IMG/VR virus record: IMGVR_UViG_3300037141_000236
Span: 1-64,000 of that record
DNA length: 64,000 bases
From: a virus
Direction: 5' to 3' (one strand)
Shown here: positions 47,017-63,880 of the stretch, one piece after another
How positions within the stretch are numbered: position 1 is the stretch's first letter
Layout: each line of letters starts with the position of its first letter
Position numbers and translations under genes: made by a program
The notes under the pieces: generated by a model
What the model was told of the DNA's origin: nothing
Databases searched by the model: none
What the model saw: the letters and a program-made list of their open reading frames with translations, nothing else

Positions 47017-47201
47017 ATCGACATCCTGCTTTAGAAGTCTTATTGGCTTCAGACCGAATGATTGAGAAAATTGACGAAGCATTAAACATTTTAAAACCAA
47101 ACACATATGGCATCGGTGACAATGAAACAAACAGACTTTATTCTCAAACAAGCAGTACAACTCAAAGGGACAAAGTTTTGGGGCAAAGTAAGAATGATTG
47201 A
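47013..47201 (+). CDS. Hypothetical protein
   Basis: ATGA-coupled to the upstream gene. Confidence 0.45.
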   Translation: MNRHPALEVLLASDRMIEKIDEALNILKPNTYGIGDNETNRLYSQTSSTTQRDKVLGQSKND

Positions 47202-48036
47202 AACAGATCCCGAGACAGGAGAACAAACTCGTATTTATGTGCAACTTCTTTCTTCAAAGAGGGATCACCATGAAGCTTCTGGATTTAAAACAGAGAGGTT
47301 TGACTACCAACTTGTTCCATGCCTGTTTGATGAAATAGAAGACAGGGCTGCTTCTAATAATGACATTTTCTCTTTAATATCAAGAGGAGACCTGGCAAAG
47401 ATCAAAACGCTCAAACTTAAAAACCTTGACAGGCAACCTATGGGCCGAGCCATAGGTCATCACGGTGCGATTGGCTGGGCTCTTGCTGTCGGAACCATTG
47501 AAGTGATTCAGTACCTTCTGGAATATTCTCCGAAACTAAGACATTCAGCAGGTTGGCTTAACTATCTTTATAATAGGCAAGCGACAACAACACAAGCTGA
47601 GTACCTTTTGATTTATGATCTTCTTTTAAAACATTACCCCAATCAATTGGTAAACTCCCAGGTGGTTCGCAATATGCAATATCAGGAAGATAAATATTTC
47701 GCGATAATACCAATGTATCTTAAACAAGAAGGTGTGGCAGCACGCAATGTAAAAGGATACCAAAACTTACTTGTCCACGCTTTACGTTCCGGAGCTTATA
47801 AAATAGCACAACATTTGATTGTGAATGGGTTTGATTTATACCAAACCATTGATTTTTTAAAACATGAATCTTTTCGCACACATGGTAATCCCGATCGAAC
47901 CCAATTAGATGGTGTTCGAGAGATATTGAAAAGTCGTGGCCATGCAAGCACAGCTATTGAGGATCTTATTAAGTTCGCCAAGGATCCAGAACGTTGGGAA
48001 GCGAATGAAGTAATCAAACAAGAAATCGGGTTATGA
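47194..48036 (+). CDS. Ankyrin-repeat-like protein ending in IKQEIGL
   Basis: IFSLISRGDLAKIK.L, AIGWALAVGTIEVIQYLLE, LLVHALRSGAYKIAQHLIVNGFD; start may be 47107 or 47194. Confidence 0.6.
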   Translation: MIETDPETGEQTRIYVQLLSSKRDHHEASGFKTERFDYQLVPCLFDEIEDRAASNNDIFSLISRGDLAKIKTLKLKNLDRQPMGRAIGHHGAIGWALAVGTIEVIQYLLEYSPKLRHSAGWLNYLYNRQATTTQAEYLLIYDLLLKHYPNQLVNSQVVRNMQYQEDKYFAIIPMYLKQEGVAARNVKGYQNLLVHALRSGAYKIAQHLIVNGFDLYQTIDFLKHESFRTHGNPDRTQLDGVREILKSRGHASTAIEDLIKFAKDPERWEANEVIKQEIGL

Positions 48037-48398
48037 AAACCATAGAAGAAGACTTTTGTGTTCTCTTGCCTGAAGATCGGGAAGAAAACAAAATTGTATT
48101 CTTGCGTATTGAACTTCTTCTTTTAGATAATGGCTATCAATGGCCGGGATCTCAAATATTTGATTATAAAAAGACCTTCAGATACCTGCCGCGAGCAACA
48201 AAGTTTACAGTTCGAAAAGAGGAGCGCGGTAAATTTATAAGGTATTCAACATTTCCTCATGCAGAAGGGTTCTGTATATCTCCTGATATATTAATTGATT
48301 ACTTTGAAAACGATGGTTTATATCCACCTGCGTTACAAAGAGCATACGATTGGATTCACATGGAAATTTACCCTGATCCAATAACCCTAGCGTGCTAA
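48033..48398 (+). CDS. Hypothetical protein
   Basis: ATGA coupling. Confidence 0.65.
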   Translation: MKTIEEDFCVLLPEDREENKIVFLRIELLLLDNGYQWPGSQIFDYKKTFRYLPRATKFTVRKEERGKFIRYSTFPHAEGFCISPDILIDYFENDGLYPPALQRAYDWIHMEIYPDPITLAC

Positions 48399-48466
48399 CA
48401 TTCTCAACAATAAGGTTTATCCGTTAACAATCTTTCTATATCTTTACGGTATCAATAACAACGCCC

Positions 48467-49846
48467 ATGAGAATTAATCCTTATTTTGCCGACACAAGAC
48501 ATGCAGCCATCTTTAAAGATGGTGAAGAACTCAACCGGTGTAATATGAAAAATGGTCTTGAAATTATGGCACCGGTGGGTGCATCCCTTTATTTTGGGGA
48601 AATAATTGACTGTTGGGATAGTGTAACCATCACTTGCTCATTCATTGGATTATCAGGTTCCCGAGCGATCCCATGTGAAAATCTTCGAATAATACCAGGT
48701 AGCATTCATGCATATAAGCCAGAAGATTTTAAACACGGTCAAAAGTTTACCGCAAAATATAAGGGCCAGAGAATTGTCGGAGCCGTTTCAATTTCCGGAG
48801 GAGAAATCTACTTATGTCAAAACGTAGAGAACGGCAAATACACCAAGGAAAAATTTGGTTTTGATTTTTCTTATGTGATTTACGATGGGTGTGGATCAAT
48901 AGATCCTTCCGGTCTCTTTACCGAATTAGTTTTCAGCGACGGGTGGGGATTCGATTACGAAGCAAAAATAAATCCCATTACGTTTGAGCCGGTTACAGAT
49001 GAATGGGTTGAAATGACTGGTGGTGATATCACATTGGGCAAAACAGTTAAGCATATTTATGGAGGAACTGGGATTATCACGCGATTAGATTCCCGTATTA
49101 TCGGAATTAAATGGGAAAATCACTCCTATGATTCAGAATATACTTCAAAGATAATATTCAAAAATCTCTTAACGAAGAAAGACAATTCAATGTCAGAACT
49201 CACCACACGCTTAAATGAAGAAGCAGTATTGCGAAAAATACCGTTAAATGATGAGACTCAGGTCAATGCAGACAATGTTCACGAAGGTGAATCAGTAAGA
49301 ATATATTCTCATTCTGATGGTGGAAAACTATTAGGTGTAGGAACCATAAAGACACGCAGTGGAGTCTGGGGCGCAACTGTTGACCGTCTTGGGGCAGTAA
49401 GCTATACTAGCTATTGCTGCCTCCGCAGACTTGATTACAAAGAATGCTCCCCTTTATTTAAAGACCATCTTAAAATAAATCTTAATGTATTTCACATTAG
49501 TGGTTTGAAAGGAATCATCACAGGTTTTTCTCGCACGGCTGAATCGTCAAAAATGAAAATCTACATAAAATGGGAAAAGACGGAAGATAATTCGCATAAT
49601 TCCGAACCCGTTAAGTATTCTGAACTCTTACTTCCCCAACTTTATTTCAAATCTAACCAAACACAAACCATAAAACCAAACACAAATGAAAAACGCGAGC
49701 ACAAAAGTATTGAAGTATGTCGACCGGTTGCAACAATCACAAGCGGACAAAGACGCCCAGGAAACACAGTTTCAGGCAGAGGAAGCAAAACAACAATTAG
49801 CAGGGGACATCAACGCCACAAAGCGATCGATAGCGCAGCATGGTAA
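48467..49846 (+). CDS. Multi-domain hypothetical protein
   Basis: 459 aa; GEIYLCQN..NG...EKFGFDFSY module; TATCTTTA box at 48439. Confidence 0.7.
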   Translation: MRINPYFADTRHAAIFKDGEELNRCNMKNGLEIMAPVGASLYFGEIIDCWDSVTITCSFIGLSGSRAIPCENLRIIPGSIHAYKPEDFKHGQKFTAKYKGQRIVGAVSISGGEIYLCQNVENGKYTKEKFGFDFSYVIYDGCGSIDPSGLFTELVFSDGWGFDYEAKINPITFEPVTDEWVEMTGGDITLGKTVKHIYGGTGIITRLDSRIIGIKWENHSYDSEYTSKIIFKNLLTKKDNSMSELTTRLNEEAVLRKIPLNDETQVNADNVHEGESVRIYSHSDGGKLLGVGTIKTRSGVWGATVDRLGAVSYTSYCCLRRLDYKECSPLFKDHLKINLNVFHISGLKGIITGFSRTAESSKMKIYIKWEKTEDNSHNSEPVKYSELLLPQLYFKSNQTQTIKPNTNEKREHKSIEVCRPVATITSGQRRPGNTVSGRGSKTTISRGHQRHKAIDSAAW

Positions 49847-49973
49847 GCTCCTTGCAAAACAAACCAGCATGTATCCTTTTGACCCACAAGCTATCATTTC
49901 TCTCCAGGTAAAACTTGAAGGTCTGGAAGACGGTTTGAAACGTCTCGAAGCCCTGCACGCAGAATTGTTCTAG
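49686..49973 (+). CDS. Coiled-coil protein overlapping the upstream gene
   Basis: LKYVDRL, PFDPQAII, LE.GL..LE.L..ELF; A-rich leader; terminator follows. Confidence 0.7.
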   Translation: MKNASTKVLKYVDRLQQSQADKDAQETQFQAEEAKQQLAGDINATKRSIAQHGKLLAKQTSMYPFDPQAIISLQVKLEGLEDGLKRLEALHAELF

Positions 49974-49992
49974 GAACAATCTTCACTGTATT

Positions 49993-50026
49993 AAAGAACC
50001 CTTGATAAATCAATCAAGGGTTTTTT
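49993..50026 (+). terminator. Intrinsic terminator
   Basis: aacccttgat-aaatca-atcaagggtt followed by a T-run. Confidence 0.8.
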
Positions 50027-50055
50027 AATTGTTGAGAAGTTGGTATCTTTATAAT

Positions 50056-50267
50056 ATGAAAAACTCTAAAACGTTAGAATTCGAAAAATCATTGCCGATA
50101 GTTTCGATAAAGTAATTACTGACCCTGAGACTATCGGGCGAAGAGAAGAAATTATTGAAAAGACGTTAAAGGTCATTTTGAATATAGCACATTCAAGCAT
50201 GGGGCTTGAGGGTGAAGATCCTGATCTTGAAGATGATATGTTTTTATCCTTATTGAACGGACTATGA
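50056..50267 (+). pseudogene. Frameshifted small gene
   Basis: ATG 50056 (4 nt after TATCTTTA) reads MKNSK. One extra A near 50068-50071 joins it to NVRIRKIIADSF...LLNGL*, which is coupled to the next ATG. Confidence 0.5.
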
Positions 50268-50587
50268 GCTGGGGAGATGATGGCGAACCAATGGAAGACT
50301 TTTCAAGTTTTGTCCCTAATCCTTTGGAAGAGATAAACGAAAAGTTGAGAACGGATGCCGCTGTCCTGAAAAGGGCTATATGGTCTCTTGGCCAAAAGAT
50401 TGTGGAACTTGAAGACGCTGTGATAAAAAGGGATCAGTATCTAAAAGAAGCGAAGGCATGTACAGATAAGCAGTATGTAGAAATAATACAATTAAGAGAA
50501 ATGCTTGCAGAATTAACAGGAGATGGCCTTTCTGCAGCCGAACACAAAATTAAAAAAGAAATCAATGCGTCCAATAAAGATAATTAA
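50264..50587 (+). CDS. Coiled-coil protein with KIKKEI motif
   Basis: 107-aa ORF. Confidence 0.65.
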   Translation: MSWGDDGEPMEDFSSFVPNPLEEINEKLRTDAAVLKRAIWSLGQKIVELEDAVIKRDQYLKEAKACTDKQYVEIIQLREMLAELTGDGLSAAEHKIKKEINASNKDN

Positions 50588-50936
50588 AGTCGGTCACATG
50601 AAGCATCCGGGTAAAGAGGAAGAGCTACCCTCATCGTACAATCAGCTTGATAATTTTCTAAAAATGAATTCCACCACTGCATCTGAACTTAAAATGCAAG
50701 AAGTATTAATTGGGTGGGATATCGCACATCCGCCTTTAAGTATTCAAAGCATGTCTCCAGATGACATTGGCAAAACAGTTGCTTATCTTCCCAAACGCTC
50801 TTCACTTATTGAATCAGTGAAAGCTTCTGAAGGCGGAATTATTACTGCTTACAATGATACTTATGTTTTTGTACGTTTTGGAAGAGGGTCCATTGGAAGT
50901 AGTCAAGCTTGTAATCCCGAAGATTTACGTTACTAA
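50565..50936 (+). CDS. Hypothetical protein with C-terminal SH3-like domain
   Basis: DIGKTVAY..EGGIITAYND.YVFVRF..QACNPEDL. Confidence 0.6.
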   Translation: MRPIKIIKVGHMKHPGKEEELPSSYNQLDNFLKMNSTTASELKMQEVLIGWDIAHPPLSIQSMSPDDIGKTVAYLPKRSSLIESVKASEGGIITAYNDTYVFVRFGRGSIGSSQACNPEDLRY

Positions 50937-50975
50937 TGTTAGGAAGATTCCCCAAGCTTTTTGTATTTAATGATA

Positions 50976-51452
50976 ATGAAAGAGATTGAGTTTAGTTGCA
51001 TTATGGTTGGTTTCGACCTTCCTAACTTCCAGGAGTTTACTGAAAAATTTATACACCCTGAAGATGTGCTTAAATTAGAGGAGACCCCCCACGTAACAAT
51101 TTGTTTTGGACTTTCTCCAAACATCTCCTTAGACGAAGTAAAATCGCTATTATTGCCGCTTAAAGACATCTACATTACTTCTTCTGAGATTAACGAATTC
51201 ATACAAGATGGTTTTGAAGTTGTTAAATTCGCAGTCAGTGCTCCGCTCCTAGAACAAATGAATGATGTGATGACATCAACCCTTGATTACACCAAAGTAA
51301 ATCCAGGTAGATATAAGCCACACCTTACGATTTCGTATGTTAAACCCGGAACGGCACTTTCATACAAGCGCACTATCCAACCATTGATTTTAAAACCCGT
51401 TAACTACATTTTTAGTCGTCCGAACGGTGAAACCATTTATTTTACAATATGA
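50976..51452 (+). CDS. acb1: 2H phosphoesterase, Acb1/T4 gp57B-like anti-CBASS nuclease
   Basis: Two HxT motifs (PHVTI, PHLTISY), about 160 aa, standalone; late box at 50964. Confidence 0.7.
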   Translation: MKEIEFSCIMVGFDLPNFQEFTEKFIHPEDVLKLEETPHVTICFGLSPNISLDEVKSLLLPLKDIYITSSEINEFIQDGFEVVKFAVSAPLLEQMNDVMTSTLDYTKVNPGRYKPHLTISYVKPGTALSYKRTIQPLILKPVNYIFSRPNGETIYFTI

Positions 51453-52156
51453 TAGAATATTTTAAACTCTGCCCAACTTGTAGTGAGAAAATCACATATA
51501 AAAGCGCCCAAGTTTTGAAAGAATCAGTTGCTAATAATCGAAATTGTCGCAAGTGTTTTAGAAAAGTTCCAGGATTCGTTGAAAAATTATCAAAAGGTTG
51601 GTTTCAGAAAGGGCATAGGCCTTCTACTGCTGATAATAGAAAAGGTAAATCTTGGGAAGAAATCTATGGTGTAGAAAAAGCGAAAGAAATAAAACTAAAA
51701 CGTTCACAAAAGAAACAACCAATTACTTCAAATATCCAAAGAAGTATAGCGTGTAAAAACGCAGGTTGTGGAACTTCCAATAAAGGGCGAAAATGTTCCG
51801 AAGAAAACAAAAAAGCATCCAGGCTTTTAATGGTAGAACGTTTAAAAGCTACTCACCAAAATTTTCACCCACCTTATAATAAACTTGCTTGCGAACATTT
51901 CAATAAACTCATGATAGAAGAAGGTATTCACATACAACATGCTTTAAATGGTGGTGAATATCATATTAAAGAGTTAGGATATTGGATTGATGGTTATGAT
52001 AAAACAAACAATATTGTTTATGAGTTTGATGAAAAGACTCATTTTAAAGTGGATGGCGTTTTAAAAGAGAAAGATATTAAACGTCAAAAAGAAATTGAAG
52101 ACTTCTTAAAATGTAAATTTATTCGAATTAAGTGGACAGATATCCAAACCCTGTAA
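51449..52156 (+). CDS. Zn-finger + Vsr/EDxHD-like homing endonuclease
   Basis: CPTC..CRKC, GKSWEEIYG, GYWIDGYD..NIVYEFDEKTH..D.KRQ.EI..FIRI. Confidence 0.75.
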   Translation: MIEYFKLCPTCSEKITYKSAQVLKESVANNRNCRKCFRKVPGFVEKLSKGWFQKGHRPSTADNRKGKSWEEIYGVEKAKEIKLKRSQKKQPITSNIQRSIACKNAGCGTSNKGRKCSEENKKASRLLMVERLKATHQNFHPPYNKLACEHFNKLMIEEGIHIQHALNGGEYHIKELGYWIDGYDKTNNIVYEFDEKTHFKVDGVLKEKDIKRQKEIEDFLKCKFIRIKWTDIQTL

Positions 52157-52219
52157 GCCCTTCTTAATTTGATTTCCTGTTGGTTGATTACCAAATTTCT
52201 CATAAACAAGTAATCAATC

Positions 52220-52672
52220 ATGACTTCCTACACAAATATACGTTGCCAAACATATTATGGCTCAAGTCCAGTTTTTTCAGCAAACTATGGTGAAGTGGTT
52301 CTTAACTGCATTCATTTCATAGATCCGGGAACAAATGCAATTAAATGGGTTGTAACGTATGCAACACCGTATGTTGAGCCTGCATATGCAGCACCACATT
52401 CTACTGTGACAGTGCAACCTGAGCCTTATCAAGCACAAACAGTTTCAAGTATGATCTATTACCAAACAGAACTTTACAAGGAACAAAACATGAATGCAGC
52501 GATGAGACGTTTCTTACAAGTGAAAGGTTTGGAAGAAGACTTCAATAGACTTTTTGCAGATGAACAAGTTAGAAAAGAAATGGCCTCCGCTGTGAAGTTA
52601 ACCTTAGATGCCCAACCGTTACCAGAGGAAGCACTTTCTGGTTATGCAGCGACCGGTAGTTCTACAAAATAA
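52220..52672 (+). CDS. Hypothetical protein
   Basis: 150-aa ORF. Confidence 0.65.
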   Translation: MTSYTNIRCQTYYGSSPVFSANYGEVVLNCIHFIDPGTNAIKWVVTYATPYVEPAYAAPHSTVTVQPEPYQAQTVSSMIYYQTELYKEQNMNAAMRRFLQVKGLEEDFNRLFADEQVRKEMASAVKLTLDAQPLPEEALSGYAATGSSTK

Positions 52673-52711
52673 ACCTTATAAATCAAATTAGTATCCTTAA
52701 ATTTATATATT

Positions 52712-53131
52712 ATGGCAGTGAAAGTAAAGAAAGAACCTCTTAAACTAGGTGAAGATATCGAATGGGGCAAAGGGAAAAACAATTTTCAAACAACGGTAAT
52801 TGGTTTCTTCCAACCACCTTTAGGGTCGTATGCTTACAGGACACCTCCAAAGAGAATCTTAATTGAACTACCTGAAAGTAAAGTTCAACGTTTTAAAAAC
52901 GCGTATAACCCCATTTACACTGGTAAGCAGTTAAAAATAATGTATAAAAACAAACAAGATCAAATTAAAATGCATCTTGTGGAAGATATAAAACATTATG
53001 CAGTGGCAAATCCAACAGGGTTAAGACGCTTGGATCCTTTTATGCAAGCGCAAAGAGCAATCTTAAATGAAATTTATGTTGGAAGACACACAAGTCCTTC
53101 CGGCGTTTTAATAAGACAAGTTAAAAAATAA
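52712..53131 (+). CDS. Hypothetical protein
   Basis: 139-aa ORF; TAAATTTA box upstream. Confidence 0.65.
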   Translation: MAVKVKKEPLKLGEDIEWGKGKNNFQTTVIGFFQPPLGSYAYRTPPKRILIELPESKVQRFKNAYNPIYTGKQLKIMYKNKQDQIKMHLVEDIKHYAVANPTGLRRLDPFMQAQRAILNEIYVGRHTSPSGVLIRQVKK

Positions 53132-53133
53132 AT

Positions 53134-53400
53134 ATGAGACACGTGAAACTAACACCACTGGCCGTAACAATTTCAAAGGTATCAGCAATGAAGAAAGGCA
53201 CAGGAGCATTCCCTGCCAAACTAAAAGCTCCCAAGCCACTTGATCCTGCTGTTGAGAAGGCTTTAAAAGAACGTCTTGCTGCTTTGACAGGAAAAACAGT
53301 TGCTGCCATCGACGAGACAAAACGTAAAGAAAGAGTAAAGAAAGGTTACGGCAGTCTTGAAGAAGCAATGAAACAAATGAAACAAGACATAAAGAAATAA
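53134..53400 (+). CDS. Small basic protein with LAALTGKTV motif
   Basis: 88-aa ORF. Confidence 0.6.
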   Translation: MRHVKLTPLAVTISKVSAMKKGTGAFPAKLKAPKPLDPAVEKALKERLAALTGKTVAAIDETKRKERVKKGYGSLEEAMKQMKQDIKK

Positions 53401-53402
53401 TT

Positions 53403-54086
53403 ATGGCTTACGTTGGATATAAAACACCGCTTCCTTCACCAATGCCTCCACCTCCAGCAAGACCTAAATCTTCTATGGGATCTCTTGGACCATTATCACC
53501 TCATCGCATGCCTGCAGCTGAAAAATCATTATTATGGCAAATACAAGGTATGCATGATGAAATGGATTGGGAATTTCCCACAACCATTCAAATGTTATGG
53601 CTTGTAAATACAAGAGCCTTTGTGGTGGCTAATTATCATTCTAGCCAATGGCCTTCATGGATGCTTGAAGTAACTCCAACCGAACCACCAAGAGACCCAA
53701 ATGATGATGGAGGCTTAGCAGAAGCAACAAGAGCCGCGGGAGTACAAGTGGGTGTTCTTATGTCTGACCCCATAATAAATTCATATCCCGGCTTATTAAC
53801 CCCTACTGAACTCACTCAGCCTTTAGATAGAGAAACAGAAGATGCTAAAGTTAAATGGAATGCTGCAAAGTTACAAAACTTAAATGCATTACGAATGGGT
53901 AATAAATTCAAAGTAGATGATGAAGGAAACGTTCGTTTTGATGCGGGTGTTGACTATTACCAACGTGCTGCCATTCGGGAGCTTATAGAAGAATTTGGCG
54001 CGATTCCTGAAGATCACGTTGACTTCAAACCCCAGCGCAAAAATACCTGGAAAGAGAGGTTCCTTAAATGGATAAAGGAAAAATGA
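53403..54086 (+). CDS. Hypothetical protein with Pro-rich N-terminus
   Basis: 227-aa ORF. Confidence 0.65.
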   Translation: MAYVGYKTPLPSPMPPPPARPKSSMGSLGPLSPHRMPAAEKSLLWQIQGMHDEMDWEFPTTIQMLWLVNTRAFVVANYHSSQWPSWMLEVTPTEPPRDPNDDGGLAEATRAAGVQVGVLMSDPIINSYPGLLTPTELTQPLDRETEDAKVKWNAAKLQNLNALRMGNKFKVDDEGNVRFDAGVDYYQRAAIRELIEEFGAIPEDHVDFKPQRKNTWKERFLKWIKEK

Positions 54087-54134
54087 TATAATTTCACCAT
54101 ATTTAATGTATAACAAACTAAATTATATATTAAA

Positions 54135-54314
54135 ATGGAATCATTCAATTCAATTAAAGTACTAGTAGAAGGCGTTCAAGCGGACATTGACAAATTCGAA
54201 GCAGGTAACAAAGCAGCAGGAACTCGAGTAAGGGCAGCAATGCAACAAATCAAAGCTCTTTGCAAAGATGTACGTAACGATGTACAAGCAGTAAAGAAAG
54301 CACCTAAATCATAA
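54135..54314 (+). CDS. Histone H1-like protein (Hc1 family; not in ORF track)
   Basis: MESFNSIKVLVEGVQADIDKFEAGNKAAGTRVRAAMQQIKALCKDVRNDVQ; TATTTAAT box at 54100. Confidence 0.85.
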   Translation: MESFNSIKVLVEGVQADIDKFEAGNKAAGTRVRAAMQQIKALCKDVRNDVQAVKKAPKS

Positions 54315-54317
54315 ACC

Positions 54318-54533
54318 ATGGAAACAAATTTCAAAACAGTAACAGAAATAATTGCTGACAAAGATAATTGCAATTGTCCGTTGGAATTAAGTGTGATACC
54401 TAATTATATGGGTATTAATTTGTGTTCTGTGGAAGCAGTCAGTTGGCAAAAGCAAAGCGATGGTCAATTAACACAATTGACTATATACTTTACTCCTGCA
54501 GAAAAAGACACACCAATAACCGAAGTGCCATGA
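54318..54533 (+). CDS. Hypothetical protein
   Basis: 71-aa ORF. Confidence 0.6.
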   Translation: METNFKTVTEIIADKDNCNCPLELSVIPNYMGINLCSVEAVSWQKQSDGQLTQLTIYFTPAEKDTPITEVP

Positions 54534-54769: not shown

Positions 54770-55042
54770 AATATTTCTTCAGATCATTAAAAGTTATTCC
54801 TTGGGGAATAATAAACATATGTTCGATACTTTGGCACTTTGATACGAATCATTGTGTTTCATTTAATACATTGTATAATGAAATTTTAAAACCTGGTCCA
54901 AGGTATAGGTAATTGAAGGAGAAAGGGATGTGATCGCTTACAACGGCTTCTGCATCCCTTATCTTTTCAACCAAGGTTTATTTGTCAAACAGGTTGACTG
55001 TTTGTAACTTTAGCGTAATTAATATTAACTAACTAGTTGATT

Positions 55043-55999: not shown

Positions 56000-56923
56000 A
56001 TGAGACAAACAAAAACCACAACCCAAGTTGCCCGTGATGACAAGTACTTAAAGTTCCTGATGGCGCTTTATTTAAAGATCAGTAAAGGTTATACCCGAAT
56101 TTCGATTTCTGCCTTATGTGTAGAACATAAGGTTGATTCCGTTGTTGTACAAGCCGTCCTTGATTTGGGCTGGGTGAACAAAATGGCCAACACAATGCAA
56201 TACTATTGGAGAGGTCCAATTCCAATCGAAGCAATGGCCGAACAAGTCCAATCAAAAATCACCGCGATAAAGAATACAAAGACTGTGAATGAGAGGTTTA
56301 AATCAACTCCACTCAGTGCAACCGGCAAACCGCTTATTCCCGTTGTTAAATCAACAGAGCCACAAAAAGTATTGAAGGGTGCCATTCCAAGGTATCTTGA
56401 TTTCCTTGAAGCTCTTTACTTTTTGACAGCCGAAGGTAAAACCGACATCACCATAAGTAAAATAACAGCTGAGCATAAAGTAGGCTCTTCTATTCCCGGT
56501 GCGTTGATAAAGCTTAATATTATTTCCAAAGAAAAAGACGAGACATATAAAGGCCAAGGTCGGAAAGTGCTTTGGTCCTGGATTGGCGGGATTCCTGATG
56601 CAACGATGGCAGAACTCGTATTGAAGACAAACAATGCAGAAATCGTATCGCAAAGTGCAAATGCAAAAAATAAGGTTATAAAGATTGCTCCTGGTATTCC
56701 CGAAAGATTCCATCACATACTAAAGAAAGATCCCAGCGTACCTGAAATCAAAGTGGCGATCATACCAACTCCTCCTGTTGTTATTCCTGCGAAAGAATGG
56801 AATGTAAAAGTAACGCCAAGCCTTTCTGATAAAGAAAAAGCTTTGAAAAGAGAAATTGCTTTGAAACTTTTGGATCTTGGCGAATTCGAACGTGCAAACA
56901 AAATGTTAGACGAACTTCTGTAA
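56000..56923 (+). CDS. Protein with tandem duplicated winged-helix-like domains
   Basis: Two copies of YL.FL.ALY....G...I.IS....EHKV.S....A...L....K...W.G.IP...MAE. Confidence 0.7.
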   Translation: MRQTKTTTQVARDDKYLKFLMALYLKISKGYTRISISALCVEHKVDSVVVQAVLDLGWVNKMANTMQYYWRGPIPIEAMAEQVQSKITAIKNTKTVNERFKSTPLSATGKPLIPVVKSTEPQKVLKGAIPRYLDFLEALYFLTAEGKTDITISKITAEHKVGSSIPGALIKLNIISKEKDETYKGQGRKVLWSWIGGIPDATMAELVLKTNNAEIVSQSANAKNKVIKIAPGIPERFHHILKKDPSVPEIKVAIIPTPPVVIPAKEWNVKVTPSLSDKEKALKREIALKLLDLGEFERANKMLDELL

Positions 56924-56941
56924 ACCCTAAAACTTTATTAT

Positions 56942-57124
56942 ATGAGAGGTAAGATTGATCCTATGGAACAATACTTAGAAAAGAGGTTAAAGGATTTTGG
57001 AATTGTTTGCCCATCACCGAGAGGAAAGAAAAACGAAATGCTTTTCGAAGTTCCGAAGACTGAAGCAGAATGTGAAGATTTAATTCGTATATTATTAATC
57101 GCTCGTAGAGAGTTTAACAATTGA
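56942..57124 (+). CDS. Hypothetical protein
   Basis: 60-aa ORF. Confidence 0.5.
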   Translation: MRGKIDPMEQYLEKRLKDFGIVCPSPRGKKNEMLFEVPKTEAECEDLIRILLIARREFNN

Positions 57125-57250
57125 TTTATGGCACGATTACAAAACCTAAAGCGCTGGTTAAGCAATAACTTAACCTTCTTCACAACGAACGGGAACAAAC
57201 AACACCGAATTTCTCCAAGGTATATTCGCTAATTTTAGTAAATTTACCTT

Positions 57251-57460
57251 ATGAAACGATCGGACTATTTCTTTTTCGCTATTATGTTGACTTCAATGTT
57301 AACAGCAATGTACTTTATGCTATGGAGCGTAATGCCGTTCTGGATGCAATTCTGGTGGGTGTCTTTACTCCCATTAGTTATTATCAAAGTTTTCTTCCCA
57401 AATACCAAAGCAGGTAAATGGTTATTGTCTGACCCTTTTAATAAACCCAAAACAAAATGA
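57251..57460 (+). CDS. Small two-TM membrane protein
   Basis: Hydrophobic; TAAATTTA box 4 nt upstream. Confidence 0.6.
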   Translation: MKRSDYFFFAIMLTSMLTAMYFMLWSVMPFWMQFWWVSLLPLVIIKVFFPNTKAGKWLLSDPFNKPKTK

Positions 57461-57660
57461 CAAACGCACAACAACTCGGTTACGATTACTTCTACCACTA
57501 CAACGAATATTCGAAAAAGTGGTTTTGTATTCACAAAGACAGCCTTAACAACTACACTGAAAGAAACCCCAAGCAGCCAATGAATTGGAAAGATGGATCC
57601 TCAGTTGAAGATGCTGCAGCGCATATGCTTACTGTTCTTCACACTGTAACTGCTGAATAA
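57457..57660 (+). CDS. Hypothetical protein
   Basis: YDYFYHYNEYSKKWF; coupled to neighbours. Confidence 0.6.
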   Translation: MTNAQQLGYDYFYHYNEYSKKWFCIHKDSLNNYTERNPKQPMNWKDGSSVEDAAAHMLTVLHTVTAE

Positions 57661-57915
57661 ATGATCATTTCATTTCTCTTTGGTTTGTTTGTTTCTCTTG
57701 CTGGGGTTATTGTTTATGCAGTGACCACAAGCGATAGTGAATCACAATCCATAAAAGCATTGGAAGGTGAAAGAGATCGTTTAAAAGGTTCGCAGCAACA
57801 TATGTTTGAAATGTGCGAAGACTTCAAAGAGTGTAATCAGGAATTGAAAGTCGAAAACGAAAAATTAAAAGTTAACGACCCGTATGAGAAAATGCGGAAA
57901 GAATGTGGGCTATGA
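57661..57915 (+). CDS. TM + coiled-coil protein ending EKMRKECGL
   Basis: Paralogue-like to the next gene. Confidence 0.65.
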   Translation: MIISFLFGLFVSLAGVIVYAVTTSDSESQSIKALEGERDRLKGSQQHMFEMCEDFKECNQELKVENEKLKVNDPYEKMRKECGL

Positions 57916-58412
57916 TTTTACTTATCTGTTCTATTATTTGGGGTATCATCGGGTTAATCATGTCAATAGTATTTGTTGCTGACAGCGACAATACGGATGA
58001 TCACAATGCCCTTGAGTGTTTTCTTATCTTCCTGTGTATTACTGCTTTTGGGATTCCTTTATTAGCAGCAGCTGGTATTCACAATATATGGATGCAGTTT
58101 AATAAGAAATCCTATAAGAAAGAAAAAGCATTAGCTGTAAAGATCATTGATGACATGCAAAAGAAGATTGATGAATTGGAACGTGAAAAAGAAGAAGATG
58201 ATAACTGTATTAAACGAATGGCTCGTGAATATCAGGATCTGAATACTGCTTACAAAAAGCTCATTCACGACGATCCCATAGAAAAGATGCGCAGAGAGAT
58301 TGGTTTGGGCATTGAACCTGAAGAAGAAAAACTTACAGTAAGACCAGCAATAAAATTCACCAAGAAACGTAAAAAGAAACCAGTGTCTACTGGTTCTTCA
58401 TCAACATTTTAA
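57912..58412 (+). CDS. Two-TM + coiled-coil protein with EKMRREIGL motif
   Basis: DP.EKMR.E.GL shared with the upstream gene. Confidence 0.65.
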   Translation: MILLICSIIWGIIGLIMSIVFVADSDNTDDHNALECFLIFLCITAFGIPLLAAAGIHNIWMQFNKKSYKKEKALAVKIIDDMQKKIDELEREKEEDDNCIKRMAREYQDLNTAYKKLIHDDPIEKMRREIGLGIEPEEEKLTVRPAIKFTKKRKKKPVSTGSSSTF

Positions 58413-58415
58413 ACA

Positions 58416-58613
58416 ATGGTACTACTTCTCTTCATATACGGCTTTATAGGGTTCCTCTTTTGGTTCGCCGGAATGTTCCTTCATAAGGGATTAATAGCAT
58501 CTTCCTCTGCAAATAAGATTGCTTTCTTAATTTTCTGTATTATTCTTTGGTTGCCTCTATTATGTTTCGCTTTATACCGTAAAATTAAAAACCATGAAGG
58601 ACCTCATTCTTAG
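58416..58613 (+). CDS. Small two-TM membrane protein
   Basis: Hydrophobic ORF. Confidence 0.55.
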   Translation: MVLLLFIYGFIGFLFWFAGMFLHKGLIASSSANKIAFLIFCIILWLPLLCFALYRKIKNHEGPHS

Positions 58614-59043
58614 AAGCTACCAAATTGCCCATTTACGTAAATGGGATAAACTTTATATTGCTGTCGACATTCATGACGTTACTCTAGAAGCGAATTACTC
58701 GAAGGGAATACCAACTACCTTCCTAAGTAACGCCAAAGAGGTTCTCCAACGTCTAACGCAAAGAAAAGACGCTGTATTAATACTTTATACCTGTTCCTTC
58801 CCTGCCGAAATTGAACAATACTTAGAATTCTTTAAATCTCACGGTATTGAATTCAAACACGTCAATGAAAACCCCGACGCACCAAACACAGCCTTCGGTT
58901 GTTTTGATAAGAAGTTCTATTACAACATTCTTATTGAAGACAAAGCCGGATTCAATCACGTAAAAGATTGGGCTGAAATTGATGAAGCTTTGAATGAGAT
59001 TGACAAAGCTAGTGTGGATCTCGCACTGAACGCTCCGAGATAA
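58594..59043 (+). CDS. HAD-superfamily-like protein
   Basis: IAVDIHD, LILYTCS, VNENP, K.YYNILIEDKAGF. Confidence 0.75.
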   Translation: MKDLILRSYQIAHLRKWDKLYIAVDIHDVTLEANYSKGIPTTFLSNAKEVLQRLTQRKDAVLILYTCSFPAEIEQYLEFFKSHGIEFKHVNENPDAPNTAFGCFDKKFYYNILIEDKAGFNHVKDWAEIDEALNEIDKASVDLALNAPR

Positions 59044-59131
59044 ACCTTTAGAATCAACCTTCTACTCCCTTATTACCCTTCTTTTTAATAAAAACGTTTA
59101 CTATTTTTAGATTCTAAACCAATCTAATTAT

Positions 59132-59314
59132 ATGAAACATTTATTATCCCGTAACCTTCTTCTCGTATCTGCAATGGTTCTCCTTTGCATAACCATCAAC
59201 TCTTGTGGTTGTGGTTGTTCGGATAAGAAAGCTGCATTAGTTATTGTATCAGATACAACAGCTACAGCTGATACAACCGCAATTATCGTTACCACTTCAG
59301 ATTCTATAAAATAA
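59132..59314 (+). CDS. Small putative lipoprotein
   Basis: Signal peptide with INS-C lipobox, CGCGC, Thr-rich tail. Confidence 0.55.
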   Translation: MKHLLSRNLLLVSAMVLLCITINSCGCGCSDKKAALVIVSDTTATADTTAIIVTTSDSIK

Positions 59315-59318
59315 AATT

Positions 59319-59666
59319 ATGGCAAAGAAAAACAAAGTTAAAGCTATTGAGTTTGGCGACAAAAGTAAACCTAAACGTTTTACAATCGTCTGTGGGCCTT
59401 TTGATCTTGAACATGTCACTGACGGGACACCTTGTGTTTGTAAACAATGTGGTGCAAAATTATGGATAAGTGATTCATCCTTGCTTGCCGTTGCCGAAAA
59501 AGACCCTGACATAACAATGGAAAATTTACGTGTGCTTTGTGTTCCGTGTGGGCAAGAAGTCGTAAAGAAAGAAAACATTCAGAAAGCCAATCTAACAGCT
59601 CAGCAATTGGAAGAATTGGAAAGGTTCATGAAAGAAAAACCGAAGACTCAAAATGGAGAATTATAA
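59319..59666 (+). CDS. Zinc-finger hypothetical protein
   Basis: CKQC...CVPC. Confidence 0.6.
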   Translation: MAKKNKVKAIEFGDKSKPKRFTIVCGPFDLEHVTDGTPCVCKQCGAKLWISDSSLLAVAEKDPDITMENLRVLCVPCGQEVVKKENIQKANLTAQQLEELERFMKEKPKTQNGEL

Positions 59667-60165
59667 GGAGTGGACTTATATGGATAAGAGTGGTTGGAAT
59701 AGAGGGCCTTGGGATAAAGAACCTGACAAAGCAATTTGGATTGACCCCACGACTGGTTATCATGTTTCCATTGTAAGGACACATACCGGAGCTTTGTGTG
59801 GTTATGTGATGGTACCGAAGTCACACAAAATGTATAAGAAAGCTTACGATGACGTTCCTTATGAATGTCACGGCGGATTAACTTTCGGTAGAGAAAAGGA
59901 ACAAGACAAAGTTCCAAATCAAACAATACAATATATGCCGATGAAACGACTTTCATCACCTAAGAAAATGAAAGTGTTTGGTTTCGATTGCGCACACTAT
60001 GGAGACTTGTCTCCCGGAATGGCTTTAAACTTTGGCAATAGAGAAGAGACATACAAAGATTGGGTTTATGTAAAGAATGAAGTAGAACAGTTGGCGTTAC
60101 AGTTTTGGGGTGACGATGATACAGCTGGCGCAATTAACAAAATAAAACAAGAGATTGGGTTATGA
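59653..60165 (+). CDS. Conserved phage protein ending KIKQEIGL
   Basis: GPWDKEPD, GALCGYV, HGGLTF, FGFDCAHYGD, YV..EV..LA.Q. Confidence 0.8.
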   Translation: MENYKEWTYMDKSGWNRGPWDKEPDKAIWIDPTTGYHVSIVRTHTGALCGYVMVPKSHKMYKKAYDDVPYECHGGLTFGREKEQDKVPNQTIQYMPMKRLSSPKKMKVFGFDCAHYGDLSPGMALNFGNREETYKDWVYVKNEVEQLALQFWGDDDTAGAINKIKQEIGL

Positions 60166-60935
60166 GCAGATTCAACATAGGTAATATGGCGCGTTTAAAA
60201 TCCCCATCAAGTCTTTTGAAAGATGGTTGGGTTAAAGATGCTCTTGGAGGGTATAGTCATCCAAGCTATTGTTTGACAATTAATTCATCGATGGCAGGGG
60301 AACTGGTATATGCTCGTCTTGCATTGATTTCAAGAATTGACGATAAGCATGTTGAATTTTCGAATATTGGATACACTTGGCCTTTACGTGTAATGGAGAA
60401 CTGGGAGGAAATTGGTTTGTCAGAAGAGGAACCAGAAGTAATCATTGAAGAACACCCTGCTAAAGTACATATCACCGCCAGCGTTCTAACTGAACAATCA
60501 GCTTTAGCAGAGATATTCTTTACAGACTTTCTTGGGAAACTCGATCCAATACAAAAGATAAGAGCAGCTAAGGTTCTCATTTCTGAATTTGAACCTCACA
60601 ATCCCATCCTGCAAAAGCTTTGTGGCGATACAGAAATATTTAATTCTAAAGACGTCCCAAGAGGAGCCTGGATGAATAATTCCAGAGCCGTCGATACTGG
60701 GCCTTACGTTGTAGCATGTCAGAGAATGGGAAGCAGACTTACTTTTGTTAAGCTTGTTATGAACAAAACAGGTCTTGGGTTGAAAGAAGCAAAGGATGTT
60801 GTGGACAATTTGCTTTCGCCTTCTACTCATACAGTTGTTGCCTACAATCTTTCTCTTGATTGGGCAAATGAATGGGTGGCAGATATCAATTATGAGTGTC
60901 CCGATGCAAATGCCCAGGTGGGAATTTTAATTTAA
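60162..60935 (+). CDS. Protein with C-terminal ribosomal bL12 (L7/L12) CTD-like domain
   Basis: RLTFVKLV..KTGLGLKEAKDVVD. Confidence 0.7.
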   Translation: MSRFNIGNMARLKSPSSLLKDGWVKDALGGYSHPSYCLTINSSMAGELVYARLALISRIDDKHVEFSNIGYTWPLRVMENWEEIGLSEEEPEVIIEEHPAKVHITASVLTEQSALAEIFFTDFLGKLDPIQKIRAAKVLISEFEPHNPILQKLCGDTEIFNSKDVPRGAWMNNSRAVDTGPYVVACQRMGSRLTFVKLVMNKTGLGLKEAKDVVDNLLSPSTHTVVAYNLSLDWANEWVADINYECPDANAQVGILI

Positions 60936-61023
60936 ACTAACCTTCTGAGAGCTTAATTTTGTAGGCGAATGTTATTTTTACCTTTACCTTTATACAAACA
61001 TTAAATCTAACAACCTTCCCAAT

Positions 61024-62157
61024 ATGTCAAATAAGTCAAATTTAAAAGGAGCTAAGAGCATTGCGCAAAAACTTGCAGTTCTTAAAACAAACGAAGAAAA
61101 AGCTGAAGCTGCAGGACAAAAACTTGCTGACAAACCAGATGTAGAACAAATCTGGGTTGAAACAGGCAGCCAATACTTCCGCAGAGAAATCGGCCGTCAC
61201 TTCAAACAACTTGATAACGCTGTATATACAGTGGAAATCACACAGATGGGCGAATTCTATTTAGAACGTCAAGAAGAACGTTTTGATTTTCCTTACAAAG
61301 TTTACGGCCTGGAAAGCAAATTGATCCAACGTACTTTAAAGACTTATAAAGCTACAACCGGCAATATGGGTCTTCTATTGAACGGTATCAAAGGAACAGG
61401 TAAAACTGTCACTTCAAAGATCCTGGCCAACGAATTGAATATGCCTGTCATTCTTATTTCCAAATACATTCCTGGTGCCCACTTCTTCCTGAATACCATT
61501 GAGCAGGATGTTACCATCTTCATCGATGAATACGAAAAGGTTTACGAAGAAGATTCTGAAATGCTTGCAATCATGGATGGAGCATTAAACTCCGAGCATA
61601 GACGCGTATTCTTATTGACCACAAATAAACTATATGTCAATGAGAATCTGTTGCAACGCCCAAGTCGTATTCGTTACTTAAAGACCTTCCAGGACTTGAC
61701 TCCCGAAATCACCGAAGAGATTGTTGATGATTGTTTGATTCACAAACAATTCAAAACAGAGGTTTTAAAGTTCATCGCGAATTTAGAGATCATTACTGTT
61801 GACATTGTGAAAGCAGTTGTGAGTGAAGTAAACATTCACGAAGAGCCGCCATTGAATTTCAAGGATGTATTCAATGTGAAGAAGATCACTGGCAAGTATG
61901 ATGTATCCATTGTGGACCTTACCGGTGTGTCCATTCCATTTAAAAAGAATGTAACCATCAATCCAAGAAACTTTGACGATGCCGAACAATATATCGGTTA
62001 TAACTTCATGGTTGGTAACGAACACTTGGGAAGAATTACAGAAGTGTTGGATACTCATACGATCAAGATCCAACCTGCCAAAAAGAAATCGAAAGAGATT
62101 ACTGTTAAATTTGAAAGTGCAGATTCCATTCACAAAAATTACGCATTTGCGTTTTAA
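61024..62157 (+). CDS. AAA+ ATPase
   Basis: Walker A GIKGTGKT, Walker B IFIDEYEK, MDG, LLTTN, RPSRIRY. Confidence 0.9.
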   Translation: MSNKSNLKGAKSIAQKLAVLKTNEEKAEAAGQKLADKPDVEQIWVETGSQYFRREIGRHFKQLDNAVYTVEITQMGEFYLERQEERFDFPYKVYGLESKLIQRTLKTYKATTGNMGLLLNGIKGTGKTVTSKILANELNMPVILISKYIPGAHFFLNTIEQDVTIFIDEYEKVYEEDSEMLAIMDGALNSEHRRVFLLTTNKLYVNENLLQRPSRIRYLKTFQDLTPEITEEIVDDCLIHKQFKTEVLKFIANLEIITVDIVKAVVSEVNIHEEPPLNFKDVFNVKKITGKYDVSIVDLTGVSIPFKKNVTINPRNFDDAEQYIGYNFMVGNEHLGRITEVLDTHTIKIQPAKKKSKEITVKFESADSIHKNYAFAF

Positions 62158-62159
62158 CA

Positions 62160-62483
62160 ATGGGACCTTTCGAATGGATAGCACCGAAGGCTTATAATCG
62201 CTGGAGAACCTTTCGTTTAAAGCGTTATAAGAGGAAGAAAGTAAAGGAGATGAAACTCATCCCGGAGCAGCTTTACCATATTAAATTCAAAGTAAAGATT
62301 GGAGATAAAGTAAGTCCCCAGTTATGCGGCGAGTATGATATTGTAATTCCTGCGACCGGGATTTACTTTGCTAAAATAAAGCTACAAGATCATTTAGAAA
62401 GAATGATTTCTGCGGAAGTAATAGAGTTTGATATAGTTCAAGATTCCTCTGAATCTTCTTCGGATTCATCTTCTTCAATGTAA
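62160..62483 (+). CDS. Hypothetical protein
   Basis: 107-aa ORF; its Ser-rich tail is explained by an antisense gene. Confidence 0.6.
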   Translation: MGPFEWIAPKAYNRWRTFRLKRYKRKKVKEMKLIPEQLYHIKFKVKIGDKVSPQLCGEYDIVIPATGIYFAKIKLQDHLERMISAEVIEFDIVQDSSESSSDSSSSM

Positions 62484-62560
62484 TCCACATCATCGCGACG
62501 TTCCACAAGGCTTTGTATACTGCAGGCAATGATAAGTAAAAATAAAACAAGTGCTCCCAT
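62438..62560 (-). CDS. 40-aa antisense late membrane/lipoprotein (not in ORF track)
   Basis: MGALVLFLLIIACSIQSLVERRDDVDYIEEDESEEDSEES; minus-strand TATTTATA box 4 nt upstream. Confidence 0.55.
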   Translation of the reverse strand: MGALVLFLLIIACSIQSLVERRDDVDYIEEDESEEDSEES

Positions 62561-62578
62561 TACATATAAATATTTTAA

Positions 62579-62794
62579 ATGAGAACGAATTGTTTAATAT
62601 GGTCTGTGAAGTATCGAATAAACAACCCCGGTAGTAAATTGAAAGCCGAATGGGATAGTAAGCTATGTTGGTTTCACTATTATGTTATTGATGGCGAATT
62701 TGAGATACATTGTGAGCAGAGATACGAAGGCCGTTGGACACCATTGTTTGTGCCAAAAATAAGAAAAGTCAAATTAAGAAAGAAAAACAAATGA
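62579..62794 (+). CDS. Hypothetical protein
   Basis: 71-aa ORF. Confidence 0.5.
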   Translation: MRTNCLIWSVKYRINNPGSKLKAEWDSKLCWFHYYVIDGEFEIHCEQRYEGRWTPLFVPKIRKVKLRKKNK

Positions 62795-63006
62795 AATTCC
62801 CCGAAGATAAAATTATTGCTGAAGTAACCATGACAGCCAAAGAAGACGAACATGGTAATAAGCAAACTGTTTCTTTCACAACTGATAAGGTTTCTTTGTT
62901 AGACATTGATAAAGGAACCATTGTGTTAAACATTGTGGGCGATGAAGGAGTTAACATAACTGTTAAATTCACTAAACCGATGGAGGATGAAGTAGAACAT
63001 GTTTAA
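62791..63006 (+). CDS. Hypothetical protein
   Basis: Start reassigned to ATG 62791. Confidence 0.6.
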   Translation: MKFPEDKIIAEVTMTAKEDEHGNKQTVSFTTDKVSLLDIDKGTIVLNIVGDEGVNITVKFTKPMEDEVEHV

Positions 63007-63241
63007 TCTCGGTGATATTGTCGTGCGAATTGATAACAGCCATCACGGAATGAGTATTGGAATGATTTCCCGTATTGTTGGTTTTGAACGAGATCAACTT
63101 AGATTACACGATTTCAATCCAGATACTTCTCATATGCCTGAAAACTTTAGACACGCAACAGATGAAGAAGCATTCGATTATCGACAAAAACATTACACAA
63201 GTACAAAATTACAAATCATGAAAGAAGTTTATGGGGAATGA
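62999..63241 (+). CDS. SH3/KOW-like small protein ending IMKEVYGE
   Basis: FNLGDIVVRI...ENFRHAT.EE. Confidence 0.65.
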   Translation: MFNLGDIVVRIDNSHHGMSIGMISRIVGFERDQLRLHDFNPDTSHMPENFRHATDEEAFDYRQKHYTSTKLQIMKEVYGE

Positions 63242-63479
63242 ATATGATGAAGTGATGAAAGCAATGATTGTAACGTTTGCTACTCGCTTAAAAGAAAACC
63301 CCGACGAAGTGATAGTAATTGAATCGTTCATCATTGAAGAAGGATTGAAATACTTTACTGAAACGGAACAATACGAGTTATGTCAGCTTTTATTAAACTT
63401 CACAAAGGATCACCCTGAGAAGGTTATTTTGATGACAAAGAAACAATTTTTCGAAGACGACAAATGGGAAACGATATAA
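63231..63479 (+). CDS. Hypothetical protein
   Basis: LKYFTETEQYELCQ.L (UVR-like helix pair). Confidence 0.6.
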   Translation: MGNEYDEVMKAMIVTFATRLKENPDEVIVIESFIIEEGLKYFTETEQYELCQLLLNFTKDHPEKVILMTKKQFFEDDKWETI

Positions 63480-63880
63480 AATATAAATCCGGAGATCGTG
63501 TAACAGTTAAGTTGGAAGGTATTCCAGAGTTCGAAGCAAAGATCATGGCAAAAGAACAATGGAACGCTGATCAGCATGAAAAGAATCTTAATTGGTTCCT
63601 TTCCCTTGCCGGTGTTAAACCATCAATTAAAAAATTGATTGGGATATTACAAGATGACGATGATAATGGTGATCGTGATTTTACAATTTGGAAACCACAA
63701 GATTATGATTGTATTGATGATATCGTTTGGGATTCTTTTGTGGGCACACCGCCGTTCTTCAGAAGACAACATTACTTATGGACACTTGAAAAATATTTCA
63801 GACCATCATCCGGTATTATCGCAGAGGAATATAAGATAAAAAAAGAGATTTATGGCGAAGGTACCAGACTTAAATTATAA
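63464..63880 (+). CDS. SH3/KOW-like protein with KIKKEIYG motif
   Basis: KYKSGDRVTVKL. Confidence 0.65.
   Translation: MGNDIKYKSGDRVTVKLEGIPEFEAKIMAKEQWNADQHEKNLNWFLSLAGVKPSIKKLIGILQDDDDNGDRDFTIWKPQDYDCIDDIVWDSFVGTPPFFRRQHYLWTLEKYFRPSSGIIAEEYKIKKEIYGEGTRLKL

Follow-up and report, generated by a model that had tools for sequence, protein, structure and literature searches.

Why would a phage end at least 30 otherwise dissimilar accessory proteins in almost the same short peptide? The question is raised by a 64,000-nucleotide stretch of viral DNA (hereafter the window), which comprises bases 1-64000 of a single 88,947-bp contig, IMG/VR record IMGVR_UViG_3300037141_000236. The contig is probably a fragment of the genome of a T4-like myovirus; a 96-kb relative is rated 35% complete by CheckV, and the full genome is therefore probably about 270 kb. 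The original prediction, made from the window, held that ten proteins share a C-terminal peptide, here called the tag, with a core such as IKQEIGL. All ten open reading frames (ORFs) exist and end as quoted, and the signal is stronger than claimed: in a six-frame scan of the whole contig the motif ends about 34 plus-strand ORFs, some 24 of which lie beyond the window at 64.9-88.7 kb. We give roughly even odds (a probability of about 0.5) to the reading that the tag is a docking helix of about 16 residues, amphipathic in character, that addresses many accessory proteins to one partner, which differs between lineages.

We counted a strict form of the tag, [IM][KRI]xE[IVC]G[LI], and separately a looser one. 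Within the last 12 residues of the six-frame ORFs there are 21 strict tags, and two more lie internally (4.97 vs 0.058 per 1000 residues). Among the 167 genes called across the whole contig, for which a simple longest-ORF script and not a trained gene finder was used, the last 14 amino acids (aa) hold 21 strict and 32 loose tags. Shuffling whole proteins (n = 1000) gave means of 0.003 strict and 0.226 loose tags, and shuffling only the last 30 aa (n = 1000) gave 0.009 and 0.256, with maxima of 2 and 3. Chance is thus excluded, because the counts far exceed those of the shuffled controls and the copies concentrate at C-termini, as the original prediction had anticipated.

The tag is longer than its core. 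Alignment of 33 tags on the core, with position 0 at its Ile, extends the module to about 16 residues: D/T-P, Leu/Ile, x, x, Ala, Glu, x, x, Ile, Lys/Arg, x, Glu, Ile, Gly, Leu. Asp or Thr and then Pro occupy positions -9/-8, followed by Leu or Ile at -7 (21/33), Ala at -4 (14/33), Glu at -3 (18/33), Ile at 0 (31/33), Lys or Arg at +1 (29/33), Glu at +3 (33/33), Ile at +4 (30/33), Gly at +5 (21/33) and Leu at +6 (20/33). The hydrophobic positions (-7, -4, 0 and +4) are spaced 3-4-4 and fall on one helical face, and the mean helical hydrophobic moment is 0.45 vs 0.31 for the same residues shuffled. Together, the Asp/Thr-Pro N-cap, the Gly/Asn C-cap, the single hydrophobic face and the invariant Glu at +3 suggest that the tag forms a capped amphipathic helix of about 14 residues. 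Between 0 and 34 residues of any kind come after it.

The tag is conserved by selection on protein. The original prediction had argued this from the different synonymous codons of two copies (atc aaa caa gaa atc vs ata aaa caa gag att), correctly, and had set nucleotide-level conservation with a fixed spacing to the next ATG as the opposing outcome; neither was found. Across 34 tags the invariant Glu is written GAA 27 times and GAG seven times (genome usage 81/19), the first Ile is ATA in 13, ATT in 10 and ATC in 9, and the second Ile is ATT in 13, ATA in 11 and ATC in 6. All four Gly codons occur; Leu is encoded by TTA (10), CTA (7), CTG (2) and TTG (1), and Arg by AGA, CGA and CGG. From the Glu codon to the next plausible ATG there are 5 (n = 2), 7 (n = 6), 11 (n = 15) or 14 (n = 3) nucleotides (nt), or 16, 17, 20, 45, 66 or 104 nt (n = 1 each), and two tags have no following ATG. 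Five of the 34 lack a nearby downstream ATG, and tags at the ends of arrays, e.g., at 66381 and 83064, remain intact although no downstream gene is coupled to them. In addition, the tag puts G at -11 and GG at -5/-4 before the next start, where other starts avoid G (6-16% G). Gene pairs lie within 10 nt of each other in 40 of 66 untagged and 25 of 31 tagged cases in the same region. No extra RNA structure or stem-loops were found at the 34 tag junctions, where the mean minimum free energy of 70-nt windows is -5.4 kcal/mol, vs -6.9 at 112 other gene ends.

A second, different tag is found in a sister phage. This record (G003; 191 kb, 85% capsid identity, covered over its whole length with 289 genes) shares the structural genes, the sigma factor (51%) and the AAA+ ATPase (44%) with the phage of the window, and at a BLASTP threshold of 1e-5 no tagged gene is common to the two apart from the ankyrin-like protein. 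The strict IKxEIGL tag occurs nowhere in G003, and I[ND]xEL[ND] nowhere in the contig of the window. Instead, G003 carries 23 strict I[ND]xEL[ND] tails and 52 looser ones among its 289 genes, against 0.04 and 4.4 in shuffled tails. About 50 small genes with the form [IV]-x-x-I-N-x-E-L-N-x(0-6) before the stop are involved, in arrays at about 118-149 kb and elsewhere. The 0-6 residues after the tag are variable, with 9-27 nt between the end of the tag and a stop of variable context. Synonymous codons are again mixed (Asn AAT 22, AAC 12; Glu GAA 35, GAG 16; Leu TTA 31, TTG 9, CTT 4, CTA 3). In the same register, the G003 logo has Leu, Ile or Phe at -7, Ile or Val at -4 and -3, Ile at 0, Asn at +1, Leu at +4 and Asn at +5, with a hydrophobic moment of 0.49 vs 0.27 for shuffled residues. 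Glu at +3 is invariant in both types (33/33 here, 49/49 in G003), and the capping Gly is swapped for Asn; helices end most often in one of these two residues.

The ankyrin-like protein links the two systems. Its G003 orthologue (phmmer E 6e-10) is colinear to the end, where the protein of the window reads ...LIKFAKDPERWEANEVIKQEIGL (IKQEIGL) and that of G003 ...LIEYSKNPLLYDIVNEVNSELRK (VNSELRK). Thus, in this one clear pair, the tag follows the lineage rather than the protein, since each orthologue carries the tag of its own lineage. In more distant relatives reached through the capsid protein and the sigma factor (G004, G005 and L035-L043, all partial records only), no recurrent tail was seen, and the tag system looks confined to a narrow clade. 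A back-translated tag pattern gave two matches in IMG/VR, both outside real ORFs and attributable to chance. A tag-like string also ends the helicase at 10587-13187 (minus strand; ...MIKEIYNKLKQNKY) and is kept in its relatives as ITNEVYNKLK, ITSEIYSRLK and IRKEVYNKLK. This string is probably a feature of the helicase family and not a tag, being conserved also in lineages without IKxEIGL tags.

The tagged set includes the ankyrin-like protein, a phrog_2164 protein, two proteins with a hydrophobic N-terminus, a coiled-coil-like protein and many proteins of 80-140 aa. With the tails (last 16 residues) removed, all-vs-all BLASTP at 1e-3 of 33 tagged proteins from here and 49 from G003 gave nine pairs, none of them across genomes. 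The description of these proteins as unrelated therefore stands insofar as the masked bodies have almost no detectable similarity, but it has to be qualified, since 14 of the 33 share a simple N-terminal pattern. Among the 120 listed homologues of the phrog_2164 protein (59653-60165), 119 lack the tail and end soon after a conserved ...YVxxEVxxLAxQL segment; only the homologue that is 98% identical has it. With the ankyrin-like protein as query, a profile search across 1.84 billion representatives returned 14 matches. Four full-length members carry a C-terminal extension, ending in IKQEIGL, VKKEIGLV, IKKETAI and VNSELRK, and four more distant full-length members end 12-14 residues sooner, without the tag. 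Judged by these homologues, the tag is grafted onto at least two scaffolds, and the proposal of a modular tag appended to diverse proteins is upheld by tail-less outside relatives of both (119/120 and 4/8). One tagged protein of the class with the shared N-terminal start has just three homologues in a set of 5.8 billion proteins; in its two relatives at 67-74% identity, IKREIGL is unchanged and the linker and the final residue vary.

We therefore favor docking as the function of the tag. The capped amphipathic helix would dock varied accessory proteins onto a single common partner, phage-encoded or host, whose binding surface would have diverged between the two lineages, and the outcome of docking could be localisation, recruitment to a machine, delivery or turnover. 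We infer both the single reader and its co-evolution with the tag. More tentatively, and in our view possible rather than probable, the two phages may use a protein-addressing code of their own clade, in which a zip-code helix on dozens of fast-evolving proteins is read by one receptor and exists in co-diverged, orthogonal versions (IKxEIGL vs INxELN). Short terminal peptides that dock on a hub and are read by one receptor are familiar from the sliding-clamp-binding C-terminal tails of T4 gp43, gp33 and gp55 and from peroxisomal PTS1. There, as in the docking reading of the tag, unrelated proteins share a short terminal peptide; however, those sequences are unrelated to the tag, shorter, and hydrophobic or dependent on the C-terminal carboxylate, whereas the tag is a predicted capped helix that tolerates trailing residues. 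Groove-binding helical ligands such as BH3-like helices and docking domains resemble it as short helices that present a four-position hydrophobic face and an invariant acidic residue. The likeness is purely one of form, without homology.

Several observations weigh against docking. The common partner was not found, and no Pfam or PHROG family was found for the untagged proteins shared with G003 or for ten further accessory proteins. An in-place switch of the tag is seen in one clear orthologue pair only, a second pair being weak (E 1.3e-3). Fourteen of the 33 tagged proteins here begin with [KRFYLH]xG[DE]x[VIM] and may form one hypervariable SH3/KOW-like family, in which case the tail could be inherited. 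On the nucleotide side, Lys in tags is AAA 34 times and AAG twice (genome usage 68/32), and third-codon-position identity is 0.534 vs 0.421 ± 0.020 expected from residues and codon usage; this excess of A-ending Lys codons and of third-position identity shows that some nucleotide-level constraint is present. The last two residues of the tag also co-vary with the next ATG, Gly-Leu-stop going with TTATGA, Tyr-Gly with TATGG and W with ATATGG. Finally, a perfect tag (IRKEIGL and a stop) lies in frame behind the TAA of a 41-aa ORF with a hydrophobic core (75559-75684), and the end of this orphan overlaps ATG 75705, where the next tagged gene (MNFKVRDWV...) starts. This single case could reflect a recent nonsense mutation, stop-codon readthrough or DNA retained for the downstream start. 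Overall, the sequence is dual-coded: the core Glu-x-x-Ile-Lys/Arg-x-Glu-Ile is retained as protein, and the nucleotide layer is weaker. Recent gene conversion is not the cause of the uniformity, since third-position identity lies near the codon-usage expectation and the Ile codons are at expectation.

Other explanations accommodate part of this evidence. Tags could bind each other as a homotypic zipper through which tagged proteins co-assemble, those with a hydrophobic N-terminus perhaps anchoring the assembly to the membrane; the need for mutual compatibility would keep copies alike per genome and different between lineages. The 3-4-4 spacing of the amphipathic helix, the uniformity of tags per genome, their orthogonality between genomes and the occurrence of hydrophobic-N-terminus tagged proteins in both lineages all agree with this. 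The helix is short for a zipper (about 12-15 residues), however, and the conserved helix-ending Gly/Asn and charged positions look more like a ligand in a groove, and we consider co-assembly unlikely. It is likewise unlikely that the helix is a family heirloom, namely the C-terminal element of one rapidly diverging paralogue family that was spread to a few other genes by gene-end recombination and has no common reader. The tandem arrays of tagged genes would fit such an origin, as would the shared N-terminal start, which 12 of the 49 tagged G003 proteins also have. For one protein with this start, Atlas gave weak leads to SH3-like folds (DUF2158/YodC, KOW, DUF3104 and the EF-P N-domain) from a low-confidence model (pLDDT 0.52), with TM scores of 0.44-0.57 for DUF2158/YodC, KOW and the EF-P N-domain and feature scores of at most 0.88. 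For the putative SH3-like bodies no Pfam or PHROG match was found, and ten tagged proteins compared with PHROGs gave sub-threshold hints only. Against an heirloom, the bodies cannot be aligned and the tail is near-invariant, whereas a purely structural helix should co-vary with its body; moreover, the tail also ends ankyrin-like, phrog_2164, coiled-coil-like and hydrophobic-N-terminus proteins, and all copies change together between lineages.

The T4-type head module of this phage invites comparison with the capsid-targeting signal of T4, an N-terminal peptide of about ten residues that only a few proteins bear and that the prohead protease cuts off. T4-type prohead proteases cleave after Glu in the context Leu/Ile-x-Glu. 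If the tag acted alike, the helix would bind the scaffold core of the prohead, and the small proteins would be packaged and injected with the DNA. The invariant Glu of both variants would suit such a role. The internal defence proteins of T-even phages are highly diverse and share only a conserved targeting sequence (PMC3012670), and in both systems a short conserved peptide is the sole common feature of diverse, fast-evolving accessory proteins. The tag differs, however, in being at or near the C-terminus in all copies, in its length of about 16 residues, in its presence on 30-50 proteins and in having one variant per lineage. It has no recognisable cleavage context: Lys, Arg or Asn stands at P3 of the invariant Glu, and at position -5, before the upstream Glu (-3), A, E, S, L and K all occur. 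So many cargo species, hydrophobic-N-terminus proteins among them, would be unusual, and a late-type promoter motif was not seen ahead of the tagged arrays; we regard capsid targeting as rather improbable. A degron, by which a host or phage protease or unfoldase such as the AAA+ ATPase would break down accessory proteins at a set time, is very unlikely, even though the tag lies near the C-terminus and the ATPase is encoded in the same region and common to both lineages. A degron of the ssrA or PDZ-read type would have a conserved extreme C-terminus with a free carboxylate, whereas the trailing residues here and the variable, polar ones in G003 leave the free C-terminus unconserved. The ATPase, which the original prediction had offered as a candidate partner, belongs to a generic family (phrog_2376) without a PDB relative by sequence, and nothing ties it to the tag. 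Lastly, it is most improbable that the tag is a nucleotide element read as protein, either a (re-)initiation region for the downstream gene or a cassette recombination junction. The latter would resemble the promoter-early stem-loop (PeSL), a repeated conserved element that borders small non-essential genes at gene boundaries in variable, hyperplastic regions of T4-type genomes (PMC2839356). Such an element would account for the next ATG lying 5-20 nt past the Glu codon in 29 of 34 tags, for the A-ending codons and third-position identity, for the slightly weaker structure at tag junctions and for the orphan that still abuts an ATG. However, the PeSL is non-coding, intergenic promoter-plus-terminator DNA with a stable stem-loop that acts via recombination, whereas the tag is coding, drifts synonymously, including two-base changes at Arg and Leu, and is always in the identical frame inside the upstream ORF without a stem-loop. 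The G and GG at positions that other starts avoid, the scatter of ATG offsets, the nearly as tight packing of untagged genes and the variable stop context in G003 argue in the same direction. In four peat runs, whose contigs are mostly >=99% alike, no joints turned up, and the loose contig ends at tags in these runs are cross-mapping of paralogous tags within the same genome.

The tagged genes of the window are collected in the table. The ORF bounds given in the original prediction needed minor correction only: all ORFs are present, the first ATG of the ankyrin-like ORF is at 47107 (47194 is an in-frame Met), the ORF containing 57912 can begin at 57903, and the minus-strand ORF extends to 8623. 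The stop of the ankyrin-like ORF overlaps the ATG of the next gene at 48033, and the gene after the coiled-coil-like protein probably begins at ATG 50565. In both the 80-aa protein and the 138-aa protein the ATG of the next gene (63852 in the latter case) falls within the Tyr-Gly codons. The diverged tags can still be placed: that of the 121-aa protein agrees in register with the extended logo, and that of the 139-aa protein fits it in the D-P cap and at positions -7, -4, 0, +3 and +4. The hydrophobic N-terminal segments of the 84-aa and 169-aa proteins probably span the membrane. The 138-aa protein has a single near-identical homologue among 5.8 billion proteins. The tag-like end on the minus strand is kept in the closest relative as IIAQMHKEIFNQKEK.

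Tagged genes of the window and the neighbouring AAA+ ATPase. Positions are those of the window; residues after the tag are in aa.
Protein	Coordinates	Strand	Tag	Core and its position	After the tag	Remark
Ankyrin-like protein, 309 aa	47107..48036	+		IKQEIGL, 48013-48033	stop	weak Ank_3 Pfam match
121-aa protein	48033..48398	+	L-x-x-A-x-x-x-I-H-M-E-I-Y-P	IHMEIYP, 48354-48374	7	diverged tag
Coiled-coil-like protein, 107 aa	50264..50587	+	AAEHKIKKEINA	IKKEINA, 50549-50569	5	
139-aa protein	52712..53131	+	DPFMQAQRAILNEIYV	ILNEIYV, 53060-53080	16	diverged internal tag
84-aa protein	57661..57915	+	DPYEKMRKECGL	MRKECGL, 57892-57912	stop	short tag; hydrophobic N-terminal segment
169-aa protein	57903..58412	+	DPIEKMRREIGL	MRREIGL, 58287-58307	34	internal tag; hydrophobic N-terminal segments
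phrog_2164 protein, 170 aa	59653..60165	+	GDDDTAGAINKIKQEIGL	IKQEIGL, 60142-60162	stop	appended tail
80-aa protein	62999..63241	+	LQIMKEVYGE	IMKEVYG, 63215-63235	1	
138-aa protein	63464..63880	+	IIAEEYKIKKEIYG	IKKEIYG, 63836-63856	7	SH3-like start
99-aa protein	8324..8623	-	VLADIHKEIFGQKD	IHKEIFG, 8336-8356	3	tag-like end; other gene module
AAA+ ATPase	61024..62157	+				phrog_2376, generic phage ATPase; 44% identity with G003 counterpart

The genome around these genes is that of a T4-type phage with a distant cultured kin. The head module comprises a gp21-type protease at 215-985 (Peptidase_S77, E 6e-20), a 586-aa protein of unknown family at 1048-2808, a 168-aa insert at 2866-3372 and a Gp23-family capsid protein at 3454-5217 (E 1e-56). 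The latter has a long N-terminal extension, with the Gp23 match beginning at about residue 335 of 587. Further products are a tail sheath, baseplate wedge proteins and a sigma-70-family factor. The nearest cultured capsid protein is that of Flavobacterium phage vB_FspM_immuto, at 34% identity, and IMG/VR holds uncultured relatives with capsid identities of 61-91%. A nucleotide similarity search of 57000-63900 against cultured phages gave no match. Starts that are not preceded by a tag have no Shine-Dalgarno sequence, and the 20 nt upstream of them hold 6-16% G and up to 60% A. Such A-rich, G-poor starts without Shine-Dalgarno are the pattern of Bacteroidota; the translation starts appear to be of this type and point to a Bacteroidota host. 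The same DNA is present in peat metagenomes, where three studies in addition to the possible source contain at least 0.76 of the sampled words and contigs are mostly >=99% alike; no RNA data set is listed as containing it. Among the four peat runs, the only strongly variable patch within 80001-88900 of the genome lies at about 83.9-84.3 kb, in minus-strand genes outside the tagged arrays.

Several neighbouring features deserve mention. A 307-aa protein with two internal repeats (56000-56923, plus strand) is encoded immediately after the sigma factor, here as well as in G003 (30% identity), and nine more distant relatives in which no tags are seen lack it around their sigma-factor genes; by co-occurrence with tags alone, it is a candidate partner worth testing. 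Residues 192-217 (...TGLGLKEAKDVVD...) of the 257-aa protein at 60162-60935 (plus strand) match the C-terminal domain of ribosomal protein L7/L12 below threshold (23.5 vs the Pfam cut-off of 25.9 bits), and no homologue of this protein was found in G003. A late-type motif, CATATTTAATAG, with the word (C)ATATTTAAT(A/G), recurs ahead of structural genes and of 54135 and 66435, at a distance of 22-37 nt. The word stands at 1012, 23652, 24271, 25184, 42704, 54099 and 31057 (minus strand), as well as at 66421 beyond the window, and is probably the late promoter of the phage. It precedes the untagged gene at 66435 and was not seen ahead of the tagged arrays. The tagged genes may be expressed early, as the original prediction had it. 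A bipartite motif, GG(T/A)TGGT(A/C)AC...N11-13...GTATCTTTATG(G/T)TATA(G/A)GAAA, occurs at 9423 (minus strand) and at genome positions 70902 and 76450, about 40 nt upstream of 8830-9375 (minus strand), 70948 and 76495, and may mark a second promoter class.

A shared targeting or docking peptide on diverse phage proteins is a known idea. Searches of the full-text literature, supplementary files aside, brought up the T4 capsid targeting sequence and PeSL cassettes but no shared C-terminal tag on phage accessory proteins, and there is a fair chance that the tag represents a new addressing system. Even with a known hub as reader, the scale of tagging, at 30-50 proteins in each genome fragment, would be unusual among viruses. 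If one receptor reads the helix, this would explain how a large and fast-changing set of small proteins stays tied to one machine or place, and searching for the tail would be an easy means of identifying the cargo of related uncultured phages. The sister lineages, with their two orthogonal variants, would amount to a natural experiment on the co-evolution of signal and reader, and the tag could act as a portable handle that directs proteins in infected cells. If the addressing code is real, new genes would become cargo simply by gaining the helix, and these phages would encode a targeting system whose scale and modularity have no described counterpart in phages.

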